DNA of 52,022 bases, counting the filler, from Sphacelaria rigidula (lineage: Eukaryota): the NCBI GenBank assembly GCA_964200075.2. It is 3 parts of 3 records of this genome, joined end to end, with 100 filler letters (N's around TTAATTAATTAA, not from the genome) between each part and the next. Parts side by side here need not be neighbours in the genome. Positions count along the whole stretch, not along the records: positions 1 to 17,275 come from CAXNAA020001123.1; 2 more parts are not named here. The stretch is one strand, 5' to 3'. A program made the position numbers and the translations under genes. The notes beneath the pieces are model-generated. The model was given only the letters and a program-made list of their open reading frames with translations. It did not search any database and was not told the origin of the DNA. Shown here piece by piece: positions 4,600 to 34,749 of the stretch. Within the stretch, counting starts at the first letter, position 1, and each line of letters opens with the position of its first letter.

Positions 4600-6500
4600 T
4601 TCACGACATTTGCGTGTGACTCTTCTTACGCTGACCGCCGTGAAGGGTTGCGGTTGCTGCAACCAAGAAGAAATTTGTCTGACCCGCGGTCACTTTCGAA
4701 TATAGCAAGCGCAGTCGACAATGGTATGAAGCTTGCGAGCTCTGGTGTAGACTGCTGCATAATCGTGTTAGTAGGGGGACACTCACTCGCAGGCAGAAAA
4801 CTACTCCAAGCAGTATCCACTCGTAAACACGCTGAGCTGGAGGCCCTGCAGGTCCCGGTATGGAATACGCCACCCGTATCACTACCTACTTGGACGACAG
4901 TGGCCTTCGAGAATCACAAGAGAACCGCCTTTTCGCAAGCCTCAAACGTCCACGCTGGCTCCTAGGTTGCAGGACCGATTTATCCGCCTGCCCTGCTGTG
5001 CTTTCGACCGAACTGGACCTGCCACGCTTTTTACGCCCCTCATGTACCCGCCTACCCCTTCCCGTGCTAATATTTTGCTGACTCTGCGCAAGATGATTGT
5101 CTTCTTGTTCTTGCTCTTCTTGTCCCTCTTCGTCTTCGTCTTCGTCTTCGTCTTCTTCTCCCTCTTCCTCTTCGTCTTCCTCTTCGTCTTCCTCTCCTTT
5201 TTCTGCTTTTTCCTCCTCGTCCTCCTCGTCCTCCTCCCCATCCTCGTCTTCATCCCTGCTGTCATCTACACTGACATCTGTGGAACTCCCGTCTCGGGTT
5301 GCCGTCGCCCGTTCTGTCGTGTTCCAATCAACCTCCTCGCAGTCTTGTGTGCCGTTTTGCGCGGTCTACCCCTTCCCGCCCCGATAATTCTGGGGAGCCG
5401 GAAAGGAGATGTTCAGCGTCTAGCCCGAACAGGGAAAGCGCCCCGCCGTCAACTCCAAGGTGGTGGGCTCTGCAGGGGATGACGGCGTGTCAAATGTTTC
5501 CAATATGACGTCGCTATGTTCGACCACGACAGCCTCCGGTCCCAACATCGCTGCCGACGACCACCTCGACATCAGCGGCCTCTGCGCCTCTTCTGTCATC
5601 CGCTGCGGTATCTAATGTAGCTGCTGTTTCCGTCTGAGGTCGGCTCGAGGCATCTGGGGTTCCCAACATCGTCTTCGTGGAGCTAGCCGATTTCTTCACC
5701 ATTCGCTTCCTGGCCATGTGACACAGCAACAAAAAGCGGCCATCGATTCTTGAACGTTTGAACAACTTTTGTCAGCTCAATCAGGTGGTTCGCAAGATTC
5801 GCAAAAACGATAGCACTCTGTAATGACTAAGGGGACTATTTTTCTCGCGCGCGCATCCAAAATTTTGAGGTTTCGATAACACCGCAAGCACGCGCTGACG
5901 GGAACCTTACTTGTGGTTCTCCGAATTCTTATGTCGTTGGACCACGGCTTCGGTCAGCTTTTTCACGTCTTTGCCGAAGACGTGATCGCACAAGCAGATC
6001 CACTCGCCGGCAGGGTTTTTTGTTGCTATGGTAGCAATCGGAAGCTCGGCTTCCTTATCCTGCGACTTTGTCGTGTTCCTATCGCACAACTTCGAAACAA
6101 CACGCAGGTGACACCGTCGAAGAGACAATTTTACAAGTTTAGGTAAAGGTGCATATGCATAGGTTGGGGACAGAGTTCATGAATGTATTTTTCCTTGCGC
6201 GGCCTAAGCCGGACGATATGAACGGTTGGCTGTTTCACGGAGAAAGTGGAGGAACGATATCGCGGGAAACTCAAACCCTGACAAACAGAACGCACTTGTT
6301 CCTCGCAGACGCCTCGTGCTATCTCAGCCGAGCCTCTCCCATTCCTCTCCCCGTACTGTCGAAAGGCTGCTTGCAAATCTTGCACCCCATCTTCCCTGGT
6401 CCAGTCTCCCGCAGAAGCCTGGCTACGACAGCCGCAACCGTTTCCTTTCCAGCAGATCTCGATTGTCTGCTGATGATTGCGCTGGTCGAGTTGGCAAATC
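4600..6500 (-). pseudogene. Decayed spliced gene with two U1/matrin-like C2H2 zinc-finger exons and a long acidic tract, antisense inside the NLR intron
   Basis: Exon ~6500-6296 encodes GCKICKQPF...LR*HEASARNK|gtgcgt. Exon 6078-5911 (168 nt, phase 2/2) encodes WICLCDHVF...QRHKNSENHK|gtaagg. The next exon starts at 5709 (KRMVKKS...) and continues with a frameshift, TAG stops and a D/E-rich run at about 5100-5260. Outer limits are approximate. Confidence 0.6.
5097..5255. repeat. (CTT/CGT/CCT)n imperfect trinucleotide tract
   Basis: Visible run of ttc/gtc/ctc triplets; it encodes poly-D/E on the minus strand. Confidence 0.9.
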
Positions 6501-7810: not shown

Positions 7811-9531
7811 AGCGCGGGCTTGCCGCCCGGCGCCCCNNNNNNNNNNCAGATGATTTTTTGAAACAACAAATCCCAATTGATTTCCAACACACCTCAATCC
7901 AATACCTAGCCCTCGCCTTGCCCCCCCCGCCCCCCCCCCCCCCCCCCCCTCGCCCAACCCCCCTTTTTTTTTCTCGAGTTTGGAAAAGGTGGGGGGTTCT
8001 GTTCCATGAAAAATAATATTGACGTACCCTTGGTATGCCCTCAAAACGGCCATCTCGCAGCCGAGATTCTGTGCACGGTGAGTGGATGCATATGTGAACG
8101 GTAGCGCACTCACTTTCGCATCATGATCACCTGGTCTGATGACAAAACACTTTTCACAACACGAACGCGCCGATGGACAGAGGATCCGCGCATATAGCGG
8201 CGTGTTGTTGGGTATGTGGTATCTTGATTGCAGCGAACACAAAGCGGTGAAAGTGTGGATCCACACCAACCGTGACTGTATGCATGGTGAATACTCAATA
8301 TAGGAGATGACATACTGCTTGAGATGCCAAGGTTCACCAGTATGGCGGCCTCGACAGTATAATTCGAAACTCAAGGCTGGAAACTACTTGATTTTTCTTC
8401 CAAAAGTAACCGTTTCGTCCACCTTCGGTACATGTATCAGGTAATAACGGCTGGGTTCTTGGAGACCAAAACATTTGGGTGACAACCAATGACCACGAAA
8501 ACCACTCGTCGGAGAGACTTCTACAGCACATCGAAAAAGGCGGAAGTGGGCTTGTGCTATAGTACAGAATAGTATGACGTGTCACACCCTTCATTTCGTC
8601 ATTCGATTTTGAAGAACTGCTCGGTTTTGGTCAGGCGTTCGAAACGGGGGGCACATGTCGATCAGGAACCTGGCCGTTGATGGAAGTGCGGAACCATGGA
8701 GGTCACTTTTGTTCCAAATGCCCTCAAGTGGTTCCGGGAGAGTTGGTTTCTTGCGGGGCTGAAATATGGATGCGATTTTAATTTCGAACGACTCCCATCA
8801 GAGTTGGCGTAAGGTTCACCCACAGGAGAAGCGTGCCTTGACCCAGGAGCGCCGGAATTTTCGGTGCAAGGGTCGCCCAGCGGGCATGGATTGTTGAGAA
8901 ACGTTGTGGCCACGATTACGGTATTCGTTCCCCGAGATCATACCTCTGTATGAGCGTTACCAGGCGATCGGGGAGGACCTGGAGTTGGCTGTAACGCTTT
9001 AGTACGTACATGCACTGTTCGATTCTTGCTCAGCGGGGACACACAGTCGCTTTTTGTTCCGTTGTCGGACCTTCAAATCACCTCAAGTCGCTGCGGGTTC
9101 CACGAGCGTAACCTTTCGGGTTGACCTGGGAAGCAGCTTGATTTTGTGTGACATAACACTCTTTTTCCATGTCCCAGTTCGTGGCCAGCTTCCGTTACTT
9201 ATCTCGGGCTGTATCGCGCTCGAACGCGAAAACTTTCGAACAAGCGGTGTGGGGCTGAGGAAGGAAACACGATATCGGTAATTTCGGCAGTCCAGACTTC
9301 TCTGAGCCATCACTGCTATCCTCTTCATCTTCGTCTTCCTACAACAAGAACATCACGGAGACGAGATATTAACTACCCAGCTACAATCAACCATATCATT
9401 GGTGATGGTTCACGAGAAATGACGTGTCATCAGCCATGTGTGGTGTGCGACAGTCGCTGATGATTAACCCGAACGATTGAGACAGATAAACTCGCCGTAC
9501 GTGGGAGCCGTGAAGACCTGGCGTAGTACCG

Positions 9532-9658
9532 TTCGTTGTGAGCACACAGCGCTCACCGCCTGCACATGCGGGCGGGGCGGTGGAGCCAGCGTGTCACCGC
9601 AGTCGTAGGTCGATCTGTGAGTGAGACACGACGCCCTCGCGCTGTGTACTACAATGCA
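9532..9658 (+). repeat. Intronic TPR-cassette leader, copy 1 (ends in the splice acceptor)
   Basis: 127 bp identical to 10078-10204; followed by G (completing AG) and then the TPR exon. Confidence 0.9.
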
Positions 9659-9659
9659 G

Positions 9660-9691
9660 GGGCGGTACGCGGAGGCGGAGCCGCTGTATGA
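9660..9691 (+). CDS. TPR exon of the NB-ARC-TPR gene, 5' part (the rest lies in the N gap 9692-10077)
   Basis: aatgcag|GGG CGG TAC GCG GAG GCG GAG CCG CTG TAT GA = GRYAEAEPLY(E), phase 0. Confidence 0.9.
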
Positions 9692-10077
9692 NNNNNNNNN
9701 NNNNNNNNNNNNNNNNNNNNNNNNNNNNNNNNNNNNNNNNNNNNNNNNNNNNNNNNNNNNNNNNNNNNNNNNNNNNNNNNNNNNNNNNNNNNNNNNNNNN
9801 NNNNNNNNNNNNNNNNNNNNNNNNNNNNNNNNNNNNNNNNNNNNNNNNNNNNNNNNNNNNNNNNNNNNNNNNNNNNNNNNNNNNNNNNNNNNNNNNNNNN
9901 NNNNNNNNNNNNNNNNNNNNNNNNNNNNNNNNNNNNNNNNNNNNNNNNNNNNNNNNNNNNNNNNNNNNNNNNNNNNNNNNNNNNNNNNNNNNNNNNNNNN
10001 NNNNNNNNNNNNNNNNNNNNNNNNNNNNNNNNNNNNNNNNNNNNNNNNNNNNNNNNNNNNNNNNNNNNNNNNNNNNN

Positions 10078-10204
10078 TTCGTTGTGAGCACACAGCGCTC
10101 ACCGCCTGCACATGCGGGCGGGGCGGTGGAGCCAGCGTGTCACCGCAGTCGTAGGTCGATCTGTGAGTGAGACACGACGCCCTCGCGCTGTGTACTACAA
10201 TGCA
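10078..10204 (+). repeat. Intronic TPR-cassette leader, copy 2, with no exon after it (empty site)
   Basis: Identical to 9532-9658 up to ...ACAATGCA, then continues TGCGACGTTTCG instead of G|GGGCGG. Confidence 0.85.
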
Positions 10205-10522
10205 TGCGACGTTTCGTTTGCCGGGCTACTCTGCGCGCACTGCGAGATGATTCAGGTGCGGTTTCGATGCCGACCGTATTCGCCCGGCGATGTCAATATC
10301 GTCATGGTATGCTCCGCCGTCTCCATCCGATACCCACAGGAGGAGTCGTGTAAGTCGTGATGGTAGCCGGCCCGCCACAGTTGCTGTTCCATCTCTGTTC
10401 CAGAAACGGTGTAGCGGATGCCGGCGGTGATGCAGTATTTATTCCGGGTCGGGCGCTCAGAGTTGCAGTTGTTGTTGTTGTAATATGTGTGCGGTCGTCA
10501 CCGGAGGAAGAGCGGTGATGTA

Positions 10523-11800
10523 CAGGCTGGGCGAGCCTCGAGAGGGATTTATGCACTGAAAGCGATATCTCAACGACACTGACGAGTTGGGTCGTGATCG
10601 ACATATCGTATCAATCGTCTGATCAAGGGGAAGGTGCCCATCTGCTCAAAAATTTTGTTCATTTTTTTCCTCTGGTTCACATTCCTAGTGGTGATGGCGC
10701 ACACACTCGAATCTATATTGAACCCCGAACGATCGATGAAGCGGATGAAGATCATTTTTGATGTGGACCCTTCCTGGAGCATGGGGAAACGAGAGCTACC
10801 CTCACTCTCACCAATTCGTTATCTATCTCGAGAAATAGCGCACATGAGGTTCCATACTAAAGTCAGTATACTATGAGCAGGGGCACTAAATGACCTAAAT
10901 CTGGATATCGCGTCTCAGGTTCTGAGAGTTGTCCCATTAAATTTGGTATGGAGAACCGCTAGGGCATAACAAAAAAAATACAGCTCCCACGTTTTTTTTC
11001 TCTCGTTTTCTCTCACCTTTTCTCGTGTTTTTAGGAGGTTTTCGAGGATAAATGAACAATGCTCTCGGGTTTGACTCAATTTTTGAGCTCAATCTTTAGA
11101 ATTGTGAATTGAAACTTGGCATGGAGAACGACAGAGGTATGCTGAGTAAAAGAAAGTGGGCTTTCATTTTTTCTTTTCATAAAAGGTTCGGGCGTTCTCG
11201 TAAAAAAATCATCGTTGCCACACTTCAATGCCCGCAATCAGTGAAAAAATAATATGAAGCGCAACCTCCCCCATTTTACTTGATTCATCACGACCTAGCA
11301 AGGTCCCGCACAAAGTAATCAACCAACACCAAACGTGGGCCGATAAACGGCTTGCAAAACACTGTTTCGAATTCCCGCCGCCTCGGTTTTTCAAGTGCAA
11401 TGTCGCAATTTACTTCTTGCTCATAGGCAAGATTTATTTCCTTTCCGTTCGTGCTCATCGATGAATCTGTAATGTTTTGATCCGACTAGGGCTGCCGCTG
11501 TACGTTGGCTATGCTCGGCGAATTTGTAAATGTAATGTGGACTTGGAAAGTGAAATTTGGTATGGAAAATCAACAGTGGAGAACAAGAGCGGTCTATGAG
11601 GTCCCAACGTTATTTTTTTTTGTTCGTGAGTTCAGGGCATTTCACTAAAACATCAAGTAAAGAAATCGTTGGGACCTCGCAGACAGCTTTTCTTGATGAC
11701 CTGTTGATTGTCCATACCACATATCATTTTCCAACTCCCAAGAAAAAAATTGCGAATTTGCCTGCAAAGTACAAATCCGCTTGTAGGCTGGCCCAGGCTG
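10523..11800. mobile_element. Non-autonomous Tc1/mariner-like TIR element (TA target) in the NLR intron
   Basis: TA|CAGGCTGGGCGAGCCT ... AGGCTGGCCCAGGCTG|TA. The internal sequence is shared with ~18850-19170 and 33684-34440. Confidence 0.7.
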
Positions 11801-12937
11801 TAGGTAGTTCGAAAATGGAGGTGACAGTCGGTACTGTCTCCCCCTCAGAAGTGCGATTATGGCCGCAAGCTTGTTGTGGTTCTGTATTCTGTTGTTGTCG
11901 TGTTGTCCGCGTAATCACGTGTTGTGTCGTGGGTCTTCAGCTTCGATGTTCAAATGTCGGTGATGGTGGGTGCCGTACTGATGCGTAAGAGATTATTCAT
12001 GTCCGTACCCCACACGCGCGAGAGCCACGCATACCATCCGGAGGAGCGGCAGCAGCTGATATATTTCCGTCAAAAGTTTCCGATGCACATGACATCCCGT
12101 CGGGCAACAGGGTGAATTTCACCGCCGCAAAGAAATTCTTCAGCGTGTCTTCAACCGTCCAGCCGAATTCAGGAGTTCCTTGAATCCGTCGTGTTTTTCT
12201 CTTGGCCTGCAGAAATCTCGTGAGTTTGCATCAAGCGCATCATCAACTATTTCATGGATAGTCAATCGTGATCCCAAACCGAAGCAAACGTGTGCGTTGG
12301 AATATCTACACTAATGCGCCCTGTTCCAGCAAGCTCGCGGAAAGTCTCTGCTGAGGGAACCACGCTCACTCAATCCAGGAAGAGCATTGCGGCCCAGTTT
12401 CAGTTCTTGCTTGTGCCTGCTCCGGTTGTACGTGACAGTCGTCTCTGAGTTCTTCTCCCATGCTGCACAGCTGCTGACAAGCTTCGTGTCATCTTGCAGC
12501 ATTCTTAGCGTGGTTGTGACGGTGCGCGTCAAAGTTGTCACACGTTCTCTCGCCGCGTTTTATTGAGAGAAAACTGGGAAACACAGTGTAATGCCACGAT
12601 ATGAGACGCGCCCGATACTGAGGTCAGTACAACTTTATCGCCAAAACCACATCAATCGAACAGAGGCAGAGCCGTGCGTGACCAGGTTGCGATATGCTCA
12701 CACCGGCTGAGTCAGGAATATTTGTGTACTCGAAGGTTCTACAGGCTATTGGTAACACTCGGTCCCGATCTGTAAGTAGCAGATCACGATACGCCCCGAT
12801 ACTTGACGTGCTACCGTAGGCACAATGAATCTCGCAAAGTATTTCGTGGACTGGGGTCCACAGTGCATTTGCCAACTCGTGTGCGTGTCCGCTGGTTGCC
12901 TCTTTTACACATTCCTGTGCCCCCAAAACACGTGCAG

Positions 12938-13075
12938 GGAATGTACAAGGAAGCCGTAGCTGGCCTTGAGAGGGCCTTGGCAATTCGCAAAAAGTCGCTG
13001 GGGGAACATCATGAACACACTGTCGCCACGAAGCGTAAGCTGAATGACTTGAGAAGAACACAGCTTCGTTTATGA
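12938..13075 (+). CDS. Last TPR exon of the NB-ARC-TPR gene, reading through a dead donor to TGA
   Basis: gtgcag|GMYKEAVAGLERALAIRKKSLGEHHEHTVATKRKLNDLRRTQ is exactly 126 nt (12938-13063), followed by CTTCGT, LRL and a stop. Confidence 0.85.
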   Translation, partial: GMYKEAVAGLERALAIRKKSLGEHHEHTVATKRKLNDLRRTQLRL

Positions 13076-17275: not shown

Positions 17276-17375
17276 NNNNNNNNNNNNNNNNNNNNNNNNN
17301 NNNNNNNNNNNNNNNNNNNTTAATTAATTAANNNNNNNNNNNNNNNNNNNNNNNNNNNNNNNNNNNNNNNNNNNN
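17276..17375. other. Assembly linker (44 N + TTAATTAATTAA + 44 N)
   Basis: Symmetric 100-nt spacer with six-frame stops; the same structure occurs at 34650. Confidence 0.95.
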
Positions 17376-18090: not shown

Positions 18091-19172
18091 AGTATAAAAC
18101 ATCTTTTCGGGTGAATTTTACGTCGAGGAAGGAGAAATTGTATGAGATTTTCGAGTTTCTCCACAAAAAAATTGTACATGTGTTCCTTGGACCATCCTGG
18201 GACGCATCATGAATTATTTTTTCTTTTGAGTCATTATGTACCGCCTTTCGGAGATCTTTGTACTGGGACCCCCAGAAGCCGGTAGAGAACGGAGAAACCT
18301 TGAACCCTTACCAAGAACAAATTTTTTCCATTTGGAGCATCGATACCTACGGAACTGTCATGTTTGAGGATGATCTGAGCTTTTCTACAACAGATATAAG
18401 GGAAATCGTCACGAGGCTCCCTGAGTCTTTCCTGCGTATCGACGACGACAAACTCCACATCACCGAGACATTACGTTTTCGGGTATACTTCGACCCCATT
18501 GGAACCGTTTTTAAATCCTATTCTCCCGTTAGATTCTTGAAGTGATGACGGTCACTACGGTTTGAACCATGTGGAGATTCGGTGGAAATTGGGCTTGGAA
18601 TTCGTATTTTAAAATTTCGGAACAGTTTTATAAACGCTGATTGGTCGAAACACATTTTTGTCCATAGCGCCACCGCTATAGCCCTAAACAATAATCCGGC
18701 TATGTCACCCTCTTCGTCTATTCATTGCGGTCAGTATGATACCATGTATGCGACTATTGAGTTCGTGTTGCCGAAGGCATTTGCTGATGACAGGATTTGT
18801 TTTTTTTTCTGTGAACCTGCCTGTATACTAAAGTCTACATGAAATCCCGAACGATATATACAGCGGATGATGACGAGTTTTGGTGTACACGTTCCCTGGA
18901 GCACCGGGAAACGAGCGACACCCTCACTTTTGTTTAATTCGTTATCTATCTCGAGATATGGCGCACATAAGGTTCTATACGAAAGTCAATATATTTCGAG
19001 CAGAGGCACTCAATGTACTGAATCTGGATATTGAGTCTCAGTTTTTGAGATTTGTGCTTGGAGAGACTCACCAGTGCATAATGAAAAAAAACATCGTTTT
19101 TCGTTTTTCTCAGTTTTTTTTTTCAGTTTTTCTTTCTTCTTTGTTTTTTCGGGGTAATTATCAGGAAAAATT

Positions 19173-20871
19173 CAAGGTTGTTTTCTGTAGGGTACGGTTT
19201 TCTCCACGTATACCCGGGGTATTTTGCCAGGAATTTACCGTACTTGCCAATTCTGTGACTTCTGTAAGACTTTCATACCGGTACCCGACATTTCTGTAAT
19301 CTATGTAAGACTTACCCTTACCCGATACTTCTGTAATCTCTGTAAGACTCCCGTACCGTTACCGGGGCGCACGAGTACGCTCTTCATAAGATACCTGATT
19401 GCAGGCACGGTTTTCTGTGCAACCTCCATACCCTACCCGACAGTTTCTGTGAGTTCCGTACATAATATTTACCCGTACTCGGAGCGCGGGTATGCTCTTG
19501 AAGAAGTAACCGATTGCCAGTACCGGTTTTCTGTAAGCCTCCGGCACCGTACCCGACAAGTTGTGTAATTTCTGTGAGACTTTCACCCAGTACCGGTACT
19601 CGACAGTTCTGTGAGCTCTGTAAGCCTCCCATACCCCTACCCGGGGTTCGGGTATACCGCTATAGATATACCCGATTCCAATTATGAGCACAGGTATATA
19701 CCTTGGGGAGGTACGGATACAGGTTCAATCCAAACACAACCTCATGACCTGAACATGCGCCTCCCATCGATCAACCCACCCAATTCCTTCATTCAAAACT
19801 GCACACCAACAATAGTTCAGTGTTGAAAAGTTCTTCAGTTTGAGATCTGACGGGATACGAGGTACCGCTGAGTGGAAACACGAAACATGATTAGCCCCGC
19901 AGACCATCAGATTTGATCACCCCCAGACTCGCGCGTGGTAGCTCGAGCGGGGGTGGTTTATCTGCGCCACCAGAGGATCAAGTAGCAAGACGCACGTCAT
20001 CGACGTTGATGGTGGTTGTGTCGTGGTCATCAAACCCCAGGCCATTATCGACATGTACAGCACACAGTATATGAGCTGCCACCGAAAGTCATCAAGGCCG
20101 TCGGCGATTTTGTCGCGTGCCGAAGGGCTTCCAGAGAACGGGCAGCCGTGAATCCTCCTCCATGTACTCTCTGAGAGTGTACGTGAAACCGACAGATGTT
20201 GACGATCCACATCCTACTGTGATTTTTCGTGTAGTCTTTCTCCATCAACCCCGTGAAAGCCGTTGAGAGTTGTCGTGTGCTGTCATCTGTATTTCGCCGC
20301 TGTTGTGGTCACGTAGGTCCCACCACAGGGGCGATGATAATACCAAGGTCGTGTTGTGTAGGGTACGGTTTTCTGTATACCCGGGGTATTTTGCCGGGTA
20401 TTTACCGTACCCGACAGTTCTGTGAACTCTGTAAGATTTTCATACCGGTACCCGATAGTTCTGTGAGTTCTGTAAGCCTTCCGTACCGTCACCGGGTATG
20501 CTCTTTATAAGGTACCCGGTTGCGGGTACGGTTGTCTGTGCAACCTCCATAACCTACCCGACAGTTTGTGTGAGTTCTGTGAGCCTCCCATATACTTACC
20601 CGATAGTTCTGTGAGTTCTGTACAAATACTTCGCCCTAGCCTGACGGCGGGTATGCCCTGAAAGAGTTACCCGATTGCCGGTACCGATTTTCTGTAAGCC
20701 TCCCGTACCGTACCCGACAAGTTCTGTGATTTCTGTTCGACTTTCATACCGTTACCCGACAGTTCTGTGAACTCTGTAAGATCGTCATACCGGTACCCGA
20801 CAGTTCTGTGAGTTCTGTATGGAATCTCACACCCTACAGAACGTACCCGTACCTTACAGAACACAACTTCG
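19173..20871. mobile_element. Composite non-autonomous TIR element with 8-bp TSD (P- or hAT-like)
   Basis: TSD GAAAAATT at 19165-19172 and 20872-20879. Imperfect TIRs CAAGGTTGTTTTCTGTAGGGTACGG / CCGTACCTTACAGAACACAACTTCG. Internal GTACCCGACAGTTCTGTGA subrepeats and a second left end at 20344. Confidence 0.8.
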
Positions 20872-25264: not shown

Positions 25265-28252
25265 ATGAGGCGACTTGCCTTTCTCGAGGAGGTTTCCACA
25301 TCAAACGGTGAACGGCAGCCACTATCGAGAGAGCTAGGGTGAATTTTATTGGTGATTAGCAGCCAGACCCTCCTCATCCTCGCAATCCTATCTGTTTTTG
25401 CTTCCGCGCTCATCCTTGAAAACTGTTTGGTTGACCCTCGAAACAGTCCAAGCGACATTTCGCTGCAAATAAAGCACTGCCAGGAGCTCAGCAAAGTCGT
25501 GTACGATGAAGGCGATGCGAAGTCGTTGTGCGAGGCTGTTAAGCGGACGGGGGCACATCTGAAGCAAAGTTGGGCGCCAAGCCACGTGGGGTCGGGATGC
25601 GCCGCTCTCACGGCCTTATTGCCTTTAGACGATACCGAAGTGCTGGTGGTTGCGTTCCGCGGGACGGCTGCGACGGCCGAATGGATTGAGTACCTGAAGA
25701 GTGAATCGGATCGGGGTGAATTTTCGGTGTGGATGGATACCCTGGATAAGGTGAGATGGCTGATTTTCACTCAATCAGGCAAAGGATCAGGCGCTTATTA
25801 TGCAAGGAAGCATCAGAAGTGGATACTCTGTGGAACTTCCCCCCTACCTCCCTATACCCCAGCGATTGACGTTGCCCTTCATATGTATCATGATGTATTG
25901 ATCACCACTGGCGCTGTGTCGGTTGCGGGGCGAGCATTTGAAGTGCCAACAGAGGGTGTGTCTTCCGTGCTTCCTTTTGACAACTGATGGGTCATCTTAC
26001 CCATGCATTGCCGATGTGCATTGTACCTTCACTGTCATCAAGTATAGTCTCCTTAGTGCTACAATCAACTGATGGATGCAAATCGACCGACACCCCCACC
26101 CCCACCCTTGCCCTTTCCTTACGTCATTCAATTACGAGATCTAGATCAATGAACCCCCGATTCAACGACCTTCTGGTGACTGAAGGACAAGTCGGATATC
26201 GGCAGTTTTCAGGGTACCTACATACTGAACATGACGTGAACAATCAGAAGTCTGCCGCACACACCACAGGTTATTCGCAGTCCGTATTCATTGAAAAAGA
26301 CTGAATGTATCCCAAAATATCAGCCTGAAGGAGCGTCGATATCGAGGTGGTGACCAGGAAACACTTTTCATCACAGATCTTGACCAGTGTGGGGTACGGT
26401 GGCCAGCGAGATTTCCCATGGCATGGATAGTTTCCAAGTATATTCCAATATGTTATGCTTGTCGAGGCGACGCGGTGATGCTCCCTTGTTTCACACGTAG
26501 TAGAAGCAAAGTACGAGCAGATGGGTGAGACGATGCGCGGCAGAGCTGCAAGTACTCGGATAAAGTCTCCGGAGCCGATCTGTATCCTCCTCGAGTGGCC
26601 CCCATTGGCAAGGTCAACTTGTTCGTGTATTCCGCGATTGGGATCACGTTTTTCTGGTCACAGCTCACAGATTCTGGTCGCTGTTGTACGTTTTTCAATA
26701 CGTTTTTGTGCCTTTTTGTGATGATGCGTTGTGCCTTTTGTGAGAGGGAACGGGGGGTGGTCGCTGCACCGATGACGACGCATCACCCACAATGCCCAAC
26801 TTGCTGTATTCGCTGTGAGAAACAATGCTGCCTGCTGTCACCTCAAGGATCTCACGGCACCTTCAATATCAAGGTGTATATCTTCTGACCACTGCTTTCT
26901 AAAAAACGCGTCACGGCGGTAAAAAGCCTTACCTGTAACGCTAGTACTCATTGTGCACATCACCTGACAATGAAGCGCTGACTTCCCAGCTTTACAACGA
27001 GATGGACTTGTCATGTGCCCTGCATCAGCGGCAGTAACACCGAAGTTTCGTACGACCTTGATGGAGTTTGGTCCAGTTGATGTGACAATTGCCATTTCTC
27101 CTACTAGTCACCGTCTCATTCCAGCTCGCGGAATCTAATTTGGCCACACTGTAGCAATCAACAGTGGATTCTCGAACATGGGGTTGAAGAACAAAAAAAG
27201 GTTAAACTCAAAAGCCGTGCTTTCCCTGATCTAAATTCATGACAAGTTACTTTCATACGGACCATCCCATCCCTCCCGACCTCCCTAAAACTATTTTGGG
27301 GGATTTCTAGCCTTCCATTCCCTCAAAGGGAATGTGCGAAAGCACACATTTGCCGATTTCGGGGTGAAAAAAAAAGTTTTTTGGCCCCCAAATCGTGCTT
27401 TCGCACATACTCTGTGGGGGAACGGAAGGCTAGAAATCCCTTGAAATAGTTTTAGGGGGATCGGGAGGGATGGGATGGTCCATATGAAAGGCATTTGTCA
27501 TGAATTCAGGTCGGGGGGAGCACGGAGTTTGAGTTTAACCTCATTTTGTTCCCAACGCCATTTTCGAGAATCCACTGTTAATCGCGATGTGAACACTACC
27601 TATGTGAGGTTTCAATGCGTCGTCAGTTATGTTTGTCGACTGTGGTGGGTGTTCCCCCTAGAGAAGCGAGCAATCTCTGCAAACCTATCGTTCTCGTCAT
27701 TACCAGATGTGGACAGAGCAAGGAACCATGCCAACAAGCCAGACGGGGCTGACGATGAAAGAGAGCATCGTGCACCACTTGGAAGAGAGAAGGCCTGTAT
27801 GGCTCACAGGACACAGCAAGGGTGGGGCGGTGGCCACCACCGCCGCGGCGCGTCTTGTCTGTGGAGAGGAGGTTGTTGGCATTCACTCGGCGGAATCGCT
27901 CTGTCTCTCCGTCGTGACCTTCAACTCCCCAAAGGCGCTCGAGCTCCCGTTTGCAGACGCGTACGACGAGGCTTTCGAGCAGTTCGGCCTGCGTCACTTG
28001 AGAATAGAGCATGCCAATGACGTGGTGCGCAAGGAACCTGCTGGGTTATACCACGTCGGTAGGCAGGTAAAAGTCGAAAGTCTGCCCGCCGAACTTTCCG
28101 GTCTGTTTACTTCTGGCCTGTTTGCAGCCGTTTCCGCCCATGGATTTGGGGCGTACGAGGATGACTTCGACGACAACACGGGCGGCCGCGATGATCATCC
28201 CCGGTCTCCGCAGCCTCGTGCCTACCCTGCACAATGTGAGGAAGGCTCGTAG
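25265..28252 (+). CDS. Class 3 lipase (alpha/beta hydrolase); exons 25265-25338, 25447-25750, 27707-28252
   Basis: Motifs VVAFRGT, WLTGHSKGG (27809-27826), VVTFNSPK, EHANDVVRKEP, YHVG and SAHGFGAY give a Ser-Asp-His triad. The GT-AG junctions are phase-compatible (2, 0). Exon 1 is the least certain. Confidence 0.8.
27162..27577. mobile_element. Foldback MITE in the lipase intron
   Basis: CAGTGGATTCTCGAA...TTCGAGAATCCACTG with ~190-bp inverted arms; flanks TCAA and TTAA. Confidence 0.85.
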
Positions 28253-29130: not shown

Positions 29131-29960
29131 GTGAGCACGAGAGCGTACCTGCACTACCAAGGTAACCGCCTTGACATGTATCACCTGTTTTGACAGTCTC
29201 GAGCTACCACGTACATGTTCATGTCGTCGGAATCTACCATCACCTCAACCTGCGCATGTGCATACTCTGCATATGGAACAATCTCTCTGTCTCGGAAACC
29301 ATGCAGGAAGGGTCTGCTGTTTTTCTCCCTATTTTGCAGATCGATACTAGAACGTGGCCTGGCGTTTTCCCTGTTTTTTTGTCGTTGTTTCTTCTTTTCT
29401 GTTTTATTTCTTGCTATTTCCCTACGTGTTTCCACTTCGCCTCGTTTATTCTGCGCCTTTCCCCCCAGTCTCTTTCCATTCTCGAGTTTGCGCAGCAAGG
29501 ATTTCATTGGTCCCCTTCGGTCGTATAATTTGTGCCCACGACCAGATTTTGTAGCAGATCTAATGGTTTATGATAATCAAGTAATTAAGTTCTACAAGAG
29601 GTCTGGTCGAATCCGTTGTTCCATGACGGCGTATAATTGGCAACAATGCCGTTTGCCGATGTCGAGCGATGCTGGTGCAGCGTTGCTGGCTCCTGGGCTG
29701 TTATGACGACATTATGCATTTTGTCTCGTATGTGCGGCCCTCGTGCGCAGGCCATCTCGAGGTCGCCCTACGTGCACGAATGAGGCGTTAGTGAAAATAT
29801 ACCGGATTCGTCTCACCAGTGTAAACGACAGGGCGCGGGTACAAACTTGAGAAGGAGTTGCGTCATGGGTACCAAAACGGCCTCTCCGAAACCCCATCAT
29901 TCGGCAACCAGTTACACAATCTTGTTATGGACCACAAACACGATGATTGTCTCTACGCAG

Positions 29961-31128
29961 AGAGCCCCAACCCGTCGTAGGCGGAGATTACCTCAAAGAC
30001 GTACGAGCCGCACAAGAACCACTTGTCTCCGGCGCACGGAGTGCTCTGCACGTCCACCTCATTCGAGCTGTTTGCGCACTCCCCTCCGCTCGCGTTGACA
30101 ACCTGGCAGGGGGAGCGGATGACGAAGGTACGGCGCCGCGCACGCGCCACCAGGGAGTCGTTCCTTACACCGTTGTTCTCGTGGGCAAGGCTGGTGCCGG
30201 CAAGTCCTCACTGGGGAATCACCTGCTCAATATAGGAGTCGAGGCGGATGACTACGAGGATTTCTTTGAAGAAGCAGGTGGTCCTGAAGCGTGTACGACG
30301 CGGATCCAATATGTTGTGTCAGCCGACGGGAGGTTGGCGGTCGTCGACACCCCCGGGATGCCCGACACGACGCCCCCCAAGACTCTGGAACTCTTCGACG
30401 ACATGGTCAAGAAAGTACGTGCCTTGGAGCGCATCAACCTTCTGCTGTTTGTTGCCGTCGAGGATAGGACGAACCCAAAGCAGTACGCCGAGTACCGCAC
30501 ACTGATCAAGCAGTTCAACTCGCTGCCTTGTGGGAAGCTCCTGGTGTGCCGCCAGCACGACTACTCTCGGAGACCTCCCTCCACCAAAGCGCGGGACGAG
30601 AAACGTGCCGGCGGCCTGAAGTTCGCGACAGGCATTCTGGACCATAGTGAGATGGACATGCCATACATACTGCACATGGGCGGCTCCAGCCCCGAAGCAC
30701 AAGAGAGCTTGGATGCGATATCCAGGGTAGCTCGTAGTTCCATACCTGTTCCTGTGGGGCGGTTGCTACGTACGTACGCCGAGCGCAAAGCGCACGTGAG
30801 GAGGCTTGCGTGCAAGAGGGATCGACTTGGGGCTTTGAAGGAAGAGATGGAGGAGTTGGAATCCGCCGTGGAAAATGCGCTATATTGGCAAAAGGTCCAC
30901 ATTGGGTGGACCCTGGTGGCTGGGGTTGCCGAGAAAGTGATAAATGGAGGAGATCTCTTGGTGGCCGTTGTAGGAGAACCCTTGATTAAAAAATACGATC
31001 GCATCGTCCACAGGAGAAGGGAAAAAATGAAAAACGTGCAGGAAGAAATCGACGCGGGCTGTGTGGTGGAGGGTGAGCTGCAGAAGGCCCGAGAGGAGCT
31101 TGCCGAGCTCGAGGCTCTGGCACGTTAG
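29961..31128 (+). CDS. AIG1/GIMAP-like (TRAFAC class) P-loop GTPase with C-terminal coiled coil; large terminal exon
   Basis: G1 VVLVGKAGAGKS (30184-30207), G2 ACTT, G3 VVDTPG (30346-30357) and an INLLLFV strand. The C-terminus has heptad-rich helices around a hydrophobic segment. There is no in-frame ATG before G3, and a tctctacgcag| acceptor ends at 29960. Confidence 0.85.
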
Positions 31129-33683
31129 TCTTCGATATTCACCATCTGCACCACAAGCGTTCGGTTGACACTGATATCTTCGCTCAATTTGTCGAAGCGG
31201 GCGTCGAACCCTGCGTGTTGATGTGAGTAGGTTGACCTCCCATTAAACTTCTGTTCTTGGAATTGGCGCTGCAGTGATGCTTGCCACTTTTCGTTTTTGT
31301 TTCGAAAACAAAGTTATACTTGGTGCGGTAGGGTGGCTGTTGTGCCCTCTCCACGCTCCATGTATCAGTCACCCATGGTGCCGGTGCATCATTTATAGAG
31401 ATAATCGAAATAGTCGATAACGTACACACTTGATTTGTGTGTGTTGAGAACTTAGCAAGGGCATATGATGCCAATGAGACACATGCAGGCACCCAGGCAC
31501 CACGGATGGTGGTACGCCTCTATAATGGCGTTTCAAAATGGTAAATTAAGGCGGTGTCGTCCGCGTGTGTTTATCAGCGGCGCTCTGCTGTTTCCCTTTT
31601 TTTTTATCATTCTTTGTGTTCGAATTTTGATTACCGCTGAAGCCATCGACAGCCCTGTATGCAGTTGTCTCTTTGCCGTGTTTCGATGCACATCGATCCG
31701 CAGTCGTATATTGCTCGGTTGTGTGCCTACCGCTAGTAGTGCCAACGCTTTTTCGTGTTGTCGTGATTAGTGACACTGATGTGTGATCGTGAAGAATACC
31801 GCCTGGTGTGGCTGTATGTAGATGGCGTTTTGATCGGCATTCTGTCACACGTTTTGCGAGTGGTCGGTGGCGTATAAGGAGTGTCCTTGGTGACGATCTT
31901 CTCTGATTTCGTGGTCAAAATTGCGTTGCTCGCGATTTGCGTTGGCGAACGAGTGGAGTTTGATAGTATGCGGTTTTCGCGTGTACTTGTGCGATAGGTC
32001 ATAACATGACCACGTTTTGTGAAAATGCGATGACCACATTGTATTCTAATAGTGGAGTGAACACACGTGCTTGACTGCGTGCGCGTGGTACTAAATGTCT
32101 TACTCCCTTGTGGTCGGGGGCTTTGTGCAGTCGCAACCCTCGGACTTCGTTTCTCGGTGAAATATGAACTGTCATTGATTTTTCGATTGGCAACCCCCAC
32201 GCATATTATGGTCGTCTTCGACACAGGGCTACGTCCCCTCAATTGATGGTCAGGTACCTTATTTGTAATTCACTCTGGCTTCTCAATCTTGCGTGTGCTT
32301 GAATTCGAATTGTCGTGAAGTGGTACCGAAGTGCTGACTTATCGGTCTACGAGACTATGTCTCTCTTTGGTGCTTTACATGCACGCATGCGATCACCGAT
32401 GCTGGTAAACCGTTACGGACTTGGCTGTCATGGCGACCATAGCCAGCGGTTTGAGGACTCGTCTCGCTCTGACGTCTCGTTGTCTTGTTCTTATAATTGC
32501 TGTGACGATGACCAGTAGCCACTTGCAGGCTTCGCATTTTATGTCACCACTTGATGGAGGTGTACAAAGAAACGCAAGAGATGGGCGAAGTGAAAAAGGA
32601 ACGCCCTTGTCGCTGTGTGTCCCACTTCCGTTATTAGTCCTTTGATGTTCCAGCATAAAGAATAATTGAAATGATGCAAGAGCTGATTGCATGGCGCCGG
32701 AAATATACGTATTGCCTTCGGTAGCAATTGAGTTGCACGGCAGCATCGATGGCACGATGTTGAGATTGAAGTTTGTGTGTCGGCTTCATCGCAAATTGCG
32801 GTACCACGTGCGAAGGGAGGTGGACAGATTGCTCGAAGCAAGGTGTGCTATATCCCAGATTAACCGGGCGCCGTTGGCACCGATTTGAGCCCAAGCATGT
32901 GCTGCACACTCGTGCTCACGCTGAGGGCGTGCCTGGGACTGAACCCTGTTGAGATCCGAACATGGTGGCTACACTGCAGTAGCTAAGTTAACTGCGTATT
33001 ATCGCTGAGCTGGGGTATACTCTACCGCTTACCGCATGCGATCTGGATCTGGAAACTTTTCGTCAGACACCTCGGGTGAATTCGGTGAAAGTGGATTTTA
33101 CCGGATCACCTGAACCAATATTCTAGAAGTTTGGTGATGTGATGGTGCAATGATTTGGCCGTATAAAATACATCGCCAGTGCATGGAGGCGACTACACCA
33201 GACGCCCCCCCCCCCCTCTCCCCCCGCATTGGTTCATGTCCCTCACTATACTATCGTGTCTCATGCGTGTGGTGAGGCCGTGTCTTTTCCAATTGATTCC
33301 GACTCAGGGCGTGTCTGACCATTTTATTTCGACTCGAAAACTTGCGGTCGAATCGAGTTGATACGTCAACCGCATTTATGTTCTCAGGTGGCTTCACGTC
33401 CATTTTACATCTCACAAATATTTGCGCACGACGGGGAGGATGGCAAGCAGAAAAGCGTTGCTTTTCCTAGCGAAAACGAGCGGCGAAAACGACCGAAGGG
33501 GCACATGACTCTCATGTTGCAGATAACCATGCCAGATGCCACCCTTTCACAGAACTATGCAAACCCCACATGGCGCAGCTACCAACTGAACCCTGCAGCA
33601 TAGATTACGAGCTGCACACAGGGGTATACCTATACTGCAGTAATGAATCAAAACTACCATCCTCTAGGCGTGAGATTTCTTTA

Positions 33684-34440
33684 CGAGCTGGGCCAGCCTA
33701 GACACGGATTTAAGCTCTCAAACCAATATCTCGTCGACACGGACGAGTTTGGCCGTGATCCACATATTGTTTTAATCGTCTGACCACGGGGAAGGTGCCA
33801 ATCTTCTAAAAAATTCGGCCCCATATTTTCTCGTTGATTAAACCCCGTGTCTAGTGATTCCTATATCTACACCTGAAGGAGATAGCGTCCAAACTGCAAT
33901 TTCTATGAAACCCTCGATCGATACATTCAGCGGATGGCGACGAATTTCGGTGTGTAAATTCTCTGGAGCACGGGGAGACGATAGGTACCCTCAACTTCAC
34001 CTAACTCGTAATCTATCTCGAGATATAGCGCAAATACGTTCCCATACTGAAATCATTATATTCCGAGCAGATGCACTAGATGAGCTAAACCTGGATATCG
34101 CGTCTCAGTTTTCGAGAGTTATGCGATGAAAGTTTGTATGGAAAACCGCTAGTGCATAATAAAGCTTACGAACACGGTTTTGCTTTTTCAATATTTTCTA
34201 TTTCTTTCATTTTTTCGGGTTTCTGGGGCAGTTTTGAGGAGAAATGAACACTGCTCTTAGGCTCTATCTCAATTTTTTGGGTCAATTTTTAGAATTGTGA
34301 TTTGAAATTCAGGATAAAGAACCACAGAAGTATACTGAATAAAAAAAAGTGGGCCCTCAGTTTTTTTTCTTTGGGAGAGGATCGGGCGTTCTCGAAAAAA
34401 ATGGCGGTTTCCCTACTGAAACGCCTAAACCAGTGAAATA
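33684..34440. mobile_element. Truncated copy of the mariner-like family at 10523
   Basis: TA|CGAGCTGGGCCAGCCT left end; collinear similarity with 10523-11250. Confidence 0.7.
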
Positions 34441-34649: not shown

Positions 34650-34749
34650 NNNNNNNNNNNNNNNNNNNNNNNNNNNNNNNNNNNNNNNNNNNNTTAATTA
34701 ATTAANNNNNNNNNNNNNNNNNNNNNNNNNNNNNNNNNNNNNNNNNNNN
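34650..34749. other. Assembly linker (44 N + TTAATTAATTAA + 44 N)
   Basis: Same structure as 17276-17375. Confidence 0.95.

Follow-up and report, generated by a model that had tools for sequence, protein, structure and literature searches.

The closest described system to the locus reported here is the NB-ARC-TPR gene family of the brown alga Ectocarpus. As set out in the available sections of the article on these genes (Zambounis et al. 2012, PMC3341825), each TPR, 42 amino acids long, is encoded by an exon of its own, the exons carry the signature G[K/R]YxEA[E/D]PL[Y/F], and 'inactivated' TPR exons are found in the introns. The same sections mention assembly interruptions inside the repeat domain, compare exon shuffling with the cassette assembly of lamprey VLRs and with V(D)J recombination, and state that the mechanism of shuffling 'was not investigated in depth'. 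A literature search found no published resolution of this mechanism, and the available part of a second article (PMC11378527) states that neither somatic recombinant loci nor site-specific recombinases have been reported in brown algae.

The DNA analysed here, a stretch of 52,022 nucleotides from Sphacelaria rigidula that is called the window in the following, contains a gene comparable with this family. A sequence-only reading of the window had drawn attention to a scaffold gap in this gene, before which a piece of intron leads into a TPR exon and after which the same piece recurs with no exon attached, and had seen in the two forms a filled and an empty cassette. Caution is called for, because the look of filled versus empty cassettes is probably, for the most part, a k=127 assembly drawing the edge of a many-copy unit composed of intron and exon. 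What remains real is a single fixed junction, in a gene of the NB-ARC-TPR type, at which a TPR exon is missing, with borders that nearly coincide with its two splice sites.

The window contains two 100-base spacers, at 17276-17375 and 34650-34749, each consisting of 44 N, TTAATTAATTAA and another 44 N, a linker with stops in all six frames. They mark the window as an artificial join of three scaffolds, so that sequences on either side of a spacer are not natural neighbours. An open frame with a class-3 lipase domain (27662-28252, +; Pfam, E 3.9e-12) and another with an AIG1 or MMR_HSR1-type GTPase domain (29947-31128, +; Pfam, E 4e-8 and 3.5e-8) lie on the middle scaffold, not on that of the receptor-like gene. 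At 19208-20819, a cluster of direct-repeat families (D2, D3, D5 and D7) was observed, with a unit like TACCCGACAGTTCTGTGA.. and a spacing of 41-1167 bases.

The host gene and its TPR exons

Judged by its likeness to known proteins, the host gene is a plus-strand gene of the NB-ARC-TPR type of brown algae, with its 3' part within the window. The exon just before the TPR array (865-1251, +; ..LHDLLLDFIRLE..ARLFDLQ), bordered by the acceptor TTGCAG/G and the donor CAG/GTGGGT, was aligned by tblastn to P0001 of Sphacelaria rigidula (residues 502-633) and to the EukProt entries P0002 (515-644) and P0003 (513-642), at 55-63% identity and E values of 1e-43 to 3e-36. All three proteins carry the NB-ARC family PF00931, and the aligned segment is in each the one right after the NB-ARC part; the best match, at 63% identity, is the Sphacelaria protein. 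No NB-ARC match was obtained in the five ORFs scanned with Pfam, nor for residues 1-514 of P0002 when the window was searched by tblastn, and the NB-ARC domain would sit upstream of window base 1.

In P0002 and P0003, the segment ends in ..FELQ or ..FDLQ, after which come 7 to 13 repeats, each 42 residues long (G-N-Y-..-PLYERSLAI..SLNNLAGL..SQ), and a divergent last unit. This layout, in which ..FDLQ is followed by TPR exons of the G-x-Y kind and these by a distinct terminal TPR, is common to the two proteins and the window gene. The divergent terminal TPR that closes the array here is encoded at 12938-13075 (+; GMYKEAVAGLERALAIRKKSLGEHHEHTVATKRKLNDLRRTQLRL, then a stop; GMYKEAVAGLERALAIRKKSLGEHH..), behind the acceptor GTGCAG/G, and matches the last repeat of P0002 (1190-1227, E 3e-6) and of P0003 (936-988, E 6e-6) in tblastn as well as TPR_12 in Pfam (E 4.9e-5).

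Inactivated TPR exons on the coding strand are also present in the introns, with one example and a second, weak one. The former, at 1578-1714 (+; REYTESEPLIERAHAMREKS, a stop at 1640-1642, then HPDV.. in another frame), has the likely donor GTTCGT; its match to Pfam TPR_10 (E 0.014) lies below the curated cut-off, and its stop and frameshift were read from the sequence. The latter, at 8913-9026 (+), may be a degenerate remnant ending in a stop (..IPLYERYQAIGEDLELAVTL, then the stop codon), as a match to residues 642-685 of P0002 suggests (tblastn, E 0.16, 34% identity). The donors that can be read in the gene are thus GTGGGT and GTTCGT.

The exon on which the proposed cassette was built begins at 9660 (+), and its first 32 nt (9660-9691), GGG CGG TAC GCG GAG GCG GAG CCG CTG TAT GA, encode GRYAEAEPLY, with GA left over, in phase 0 and up to the contig end. 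It has both the signature start and the phase of the Ectocarpus exons, its readable part in the window being these 32 nt, after which the gap follows, and contigs of public reads adding a further 17 bases. The sequence-only reading had spoken of an NLR-like gene, with reference to brown algal NB-ARC-TPR genes of one TPR per exon, and had placed a phase-0 TPR exon here, running into the gap; both statements agree with what was found, the first through the matches to PF00931 proteins, the exon signature and the terminal TPR, the second through the reading of 9660-9691, behind which only Ns follow.

Between 10205 and 12934, tblastn returned no TPR-like match at E up to 1, so the stretch behind the gap and the second copy of the repeat is the last intron of the gene model (10205-12937, +). 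It is single-copy at its start and harbours a very high-copy repeat at about 10508-10900. This dispersed repeat is extremely abundant, with a summed contig depth of up to 390,121 in one public run (X1), against 29-32 for the flanks; it has many internal joints that skip 69-169 bases and many loose ends, and relatives at 33682-33830 and 18936-19055, the window copies being 78.5% and 84% alike. It is probably a small non-autonomous mobile element, for which it is a candidate.

Other features of the same scaffold were noted in passing. The long intron of the receptor-like gene includes an imperfect CTT/CGT-rich tract with a period of 9/12 nt (5088-5267; direct-repeat family D1), which on the minus strand falls in a Glu/Asp-rich frame (4886-5365) that has no Pfam match. 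A run of 10 N (7837-7846) lies beside a G/C-rich low-complexity tract. Just 5' of the repeated stretch, an open frame of 102 codons (9152-9460, +), in which no TPR likeness was seen, ends at the window's sole GTGCGAC heptamer (9445).

The repeated leader and the assembly gap

The stretch 9532-9658 is identical to 10078-10204 at 127 of 127 positions by direct sequence comparison, with both copies on the plus strand, as the sequence-only reading had stated. At no more than 3 mismatches, it has just these two matches within the 52-kb window, and none of 100 shuffles gave any match. The first copy belongs to what is called here the leader, the 3' part of an intron ending in ..ATGCAG (9485-9659, +), whose likeness to other members of its family sets in at about 9485 and within which the exact repeat spans 9532-9658. 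The G at 9659 is the last intron base and completes the acceptor at copy 1; the repeat itself stops one base short and does not share this G, so that the earlier statement of a repeated segment ending in a splice acceptor is right for the intron before copy 1 but not for the repeat.

The exon start at 9660-9691 is followed directly by the scaffold gap, 386 N at 9692-10077, which probably conceals the remainder of the exon, one or more further introns and perhaps additional units. Copy 2 (10078-10204, +) opens at the first base past the gap, so it forms the first 127 bases of the right-hand contig, and it is succeeded from 10205 by TGCGACGTTTCG. Shared flanks were found at one of the six N runs of the window, namely this gap. 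As copy 2 is flush with the gap, 127 is a lower bound fixed by the contig end and no biological unit size. The leader was also considered as a structured RNA or a member of a known RNA family, and this was rejected, since it has no significant fold (z -1.32) and 0 matches in Rfam. In JGI metagenome contigs, neither the leader end nor the exon start had a match (0 for each).

Public reads give a view of the locus from outside the assembly. The left flank is present in nine public runs (labelled 'organism A' or algal metagenome), and the k=31 contigs of four of these (X1, X3, X4 and X5) were compared with 8900-10900. Such contigs lose rare variants and give depth as an average; their summed depth, which does not equal copy number, is read here only as 'many copies'. 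X4 and X5 come from different years and studies, and their contigs are equal in length (775, 167 and 93 nt) and depth (6.61 and 20.5), so that the two may be one data set rather than independent samples. Both have zero cover at 10240-10373, and X1 and X3 are the runs that provide the evidence on the exon-less junction.

The leader and the start of the exon form a many-copy family, and the flanks, from 8900 on the left and after copy 2 on the right, are single-copy. In X1, flank depths of 32.3 (8900-9435) and 29 (10240-10507) stand beside summed depths of 4437 and 3760 in the leader bins, that is 116-137 times the flank, and of 6485 in the exon-start bin; in X3, the flanks have depths of 14.3 and 13.8, the leader bins 1374 and 723, and the exon-start bin 936. 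Variants occur among the contigs of the family at a dozen positions. The left single-copy contig reaches 9534 in X1 and 9512 in X4 and X5, and contigs of the family begin at 9485 or 9501.

Both continuations of the leader were recovered from these reads. On the exon side, four X1 contigs extend past 9691 with GCAGTGTCAGGCTATCG (agreement 1), by which the frame continues as E Q C Q A I, in agreement with the PLYE..AI of its relatives. On the other side, a 456-nt contig spanning 10175-10630 with 0 differing letters joins the last 30 leader bases to TGCGAC, and it was found both in X1 (record 5, depth 29) and in X3 (record 13, depth 13.8), where the flanks are at 32.3 and 14.3. The exon-less junction is thus seen in two of the four runs at flank-level depth, and it is the sole retained path into the downstream sequence in the k=31 graphs. 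Several contigs of the family have 9658 or 10204 as their precise last base (X1 records 3 and 4, X4 records 18 and 20), as would be the case if the last 30 leader bases could be continued in two ways. The junction is real DNA, assembled independently of the window and dominant in these reads, and the claim that the second copy joins TGCGAC with no exon between stands, although a filled form in the minority may have been lost from the contigs.

The number 127 nevertheless has a meaning in assembly. Adjacent contigs in a de Bruijn graph overlap by k bases. For brown algae, the part available of a 2024 publication with short-read assemblies (10.1101/2024.02.19.579948) gives SPAdes with -k 21,57,71,99,127 and 150-nt pairs, so that the overlap found here, 127 nt, 100% identical and from the contig's first base, equals the final k in published brown-alga assemblies. 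This length, the position flush with the gap and the divergence immediately after it fit a k=127 node with two outgoing paths, which would later have been scaffolded with an estimated gap, as we infer from the number and the geometry. The picture of a 127-bp cassette is given up for this reason, its exact size and its position at the gap being what a k=127 graph yields. The likeness to a plain k-overlap at a scaffold gap is close in all these respects, with the difference that both continuations exist in the reads, so that the node is repeated in the genome itself, in two contexts, and is no spurious duplicate. A pure artefact would be a duplicated stretch that has no second genomic context, and both contexts are present in the contigs.

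Since both paths are real, the genome must hold two or more copies of the 127-mer. A 148-nt family contig (X1 record 3, depth 530) differs from it by 2 letters, so that the identical second copy points to a very recent and most likely local duplicate. In addition, the gap was estimated at +386, while a single leader would need -160, which favours two leaders at the locus; these would be separated by no less than the remainder of one exon plus an intron. The earlier proposal that the gap hides a collapsed tandem array is in part sustained, as leader and exon start are many-copy and could not be resolved by the assembler, but the content of the gap itself is a matter of deduction.

The exon-less junction and its possible origins

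At the junction, between 10204 and 10205, the left endpoint is set 1 nt inside the acceptor. Behind copy 2, the sequence opens with TGCGACGT and is single-copy from its first base; sensitive blastn and local alignment of 10205-10700 with the upstream intron and the window gave chance-level likeness only, except for the repeat at 33682-33830. Its sole likeness to the upstream intron is a short motif. Just 5' of the leader block, other family copies, known from contig loose ends at 9485 and 9501, read ..AG GTGCGGCGT / GAT[A/C]AAC.., and 7 of the 8 bases of TGCGACGT equal their motif (G)TGCGGCGT minus its first G. If this motif is the intron start of the unit, the junction is an acceptor end set against a donor start, with a G, the exon and another G missing. 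On the letters at the two ends, an absence of one exon from splice site to splice site is plausible, and the endpoints, which do not look random, are easier to reconcile with an event directed at splice sites than with a random deletion.

The breakpoint is moreover the centre of the palindrome GCATGC (10202-10207), with which ATGCAT overlaps; the chance of this is 1 in 64, for a junction that is a single case picked by eye from a very large scan. The palindrome could be a coincidence or a repair footprint. The sequence-only reading had taken TGCGAC for a donor of the GTGCGA type that has lost its G, and the 7/8 match to the family motif supports this in part; the only GTGCGAC heptamer of the window, 40 nt before the leader block (9445), points the same way. 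Against it, the other readable donors of the gene are GTGGGT and GTTCGT, and neither AGGTGCG nor GTGCGA is enriched in the window, for which reason GTGCGA as a common donor was rejected. The 21 bases before the family motif, furthermore, cannot be read as the end of a TPR exon, and in one copy they contain TAG.

Three routes to the junction were discarded on the letters observed. A microhomology-mediated deletion between CAG/G borders would leave ..GCAGGTGCGAC, while ..GCATGCGAC is observed, with neither the GG nor any microhomology. Tandem duplication needs two downstream copies, and the downstream sequence is single-copy. An exon-skipped cDNA, if recombined into the gene, would have taken the introns away as well, and these are present.

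An account on which we would rely with some reserve, and which we regard as probable, takes the locus as the 3' part of an NB-ARC-TPR gene with a homogenised many-copy unit, the edge of a k-mer assembly and one fixed, germline, exon-less junction. The internal TPR exons would be contained in a recently homogenised unit made up of the leader and a 126-nt exon, through which a short-read de Bruijn assembler would be unable to walk. The left contig would accordingly stop 33 nt past the leader, the right one would begin with the 127-mer node common to both paths, and the scaffolder would add its estimated gap of 386 N. The last leader copy would abut the single-copy last intron, 2.7 kb from the terminal TPR exon, and the junction would be the point, fixed and in the germline, at which the repeat block ends on its right-hand side. 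Most simply, it may have arisen in a one-off rearrangement, in which either one exon was lost along with about 1 base at either end, or a tract of duplication or conversion came to its end; unequal crossing-over or gene conversion would afterwards have prevented the leader from diverging from its neighbour. A blunt one-off deletion is a plausible and the plainest account of the junction itself, and the end of a duplication or conversion tract is equally so.

A rival reading gives the locus one leader only. The left flank, the leader and TGCGAC would then be contiguous, the exon run would be a wrong path taken from a paralogous copy, the gap would be spurious, and the locus would have a solo leader and no exon. 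The k=31 contigs leave room for such an arrangement, for they link the left flank to neither continuation and the last 30 leader bases are common to many contigs of the family, and the right contig opens exactly with the shared 127-mer. A scaffolder guided by read pairs, however, would hardly set +386 for a true offset of -160, an adjacent unique contig would normally have been joined, given the behaviour of assemblers, and the 2-letter difference between the 127-mer and X1 record 3 marks the identical copy as very recent and most likely local. We therefore hold a single leader to be unlikely, while giving it appreciable weight. It is much harder to see the filled and the empty form as two alleles of a heterozygous indel that were both written into the assembly, next to one another, at the gap. 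Heterozygous indels often give rise to duplicated gap edges and the two copies are 100% identical, but the junction contig has the depth of both flanks in X1 and X3 rather than half of it and has a single retained predecessor, and the exon continuation does not rejoin TGCGAC in the visible sequence, so that this explanation is most improbable.

The sequence-only reading went further and assumed that TPR exons are removed or inserted at the splice-site CAG/G, by which the solenoid would be diversified; on this view, the leader that lacks an exon would be an empty site of recent date. The endpoints lend it some colour, with one lying 1 nt inside the acceptor and the other, through the 7/8 motif match, 1 nt inside a donor-like start, at the centre of GCATGC with its probability of 1 in 64; a place is also left for it by the available sections of PMC3341825, according to which the mechanism of shuffling 'was not investigated in depth'. 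Nevertheless, there is one such junction among many leader copies, and not several empty and filled sites with one junction rule; the k=31 contigs yielded no second example, and the 456-nt contig is unbroken in X1 and X3, with no second abundant predecessor and no other junction of the same start. Its depth is that of the flanks (29 against 32.3, and 13.8 against 14.3), the other donors of the gene and the 21 bases before the family motif do not agree with it, and no transposase or recombinase family was found by Pfam among 10 ORFs (9 of the 21 of at least 170 aa, and one of 159 aa). The available part of PMC11378527 likewise states that somatic recombinant loci have not been reported in brown algae. 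Such a turnover of exons is in our judgement very improbable. There is as little reason to expect the junction to be the trace of a process by which exactly one TPR exon, together with 1 base on each side (G, 126 nt and G), is taken out or left uninserted, and the cut that would belong to it, between the two letters of the acceptor AG and of the donor GT, leaving GCA/TGC where the leader meets TGCGACGT, shares in this low probability. An excision or insertion system is thus unsupported, and the account with a homogenised unit and one fixed germline junction is retained.

Relation to known repeat-bearing receptors

If it were true, a DNA-level exon cassette mechanism addressed by splice sites would be the missing mechanism of receptor exon shuffling in brown algae. 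One junction is too little to carry such a claim. If more junctions of the same rule were to be found in long-read genomes of brown algae, the question of receptor exon shuffling would become testable.

Among the systems with which the locus may be compared, lamprey VLRs and V(D)J recombination share with it the idea of swapping repeat modules of a receptor. The palindromic bases at the junction resemble the footprints of hairpin opening. The difference is that no signal sequences, recombinase, somatic variation or second junction were found here, in the ORFs scanned, the leader and the k=31 contigs. Fungal NLRs, whose highly similar internal repeats change in number by unequal crossing-over, also have a repeat array in the sensor domain, with near-identical DNA prone to the gain and loss of units; their repeats, however, lie within one exon, whereas here each repeat is an exon of its own with a co-amplified intron.

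The NB-ARC-TPR genes of Ectocarpus remain the nearest parallel. The locus differs from them in that it belongs to another organism, with a Sphacelaria protein as its best match, at 63%, and in that the end of an intron abuts a motif like an intron start, the exon being cleanly absent. A clean absence of this kind is not described in the available sections of PMC3341825, of which supplementary table 1, on inactivated exons, may bear on the point. In other respects the two agree, as the window has a phase-0 exon with the published signature start, introns that carry decayed TPR exons in coding orientation, a distinct terminal TPR, and an array that is likewise interrupted by an assembly gap. The locus therefore belongs to an already known kind, the NB-ARC-TPR genes of brown algae with one repeat per exon and with decayed exons.
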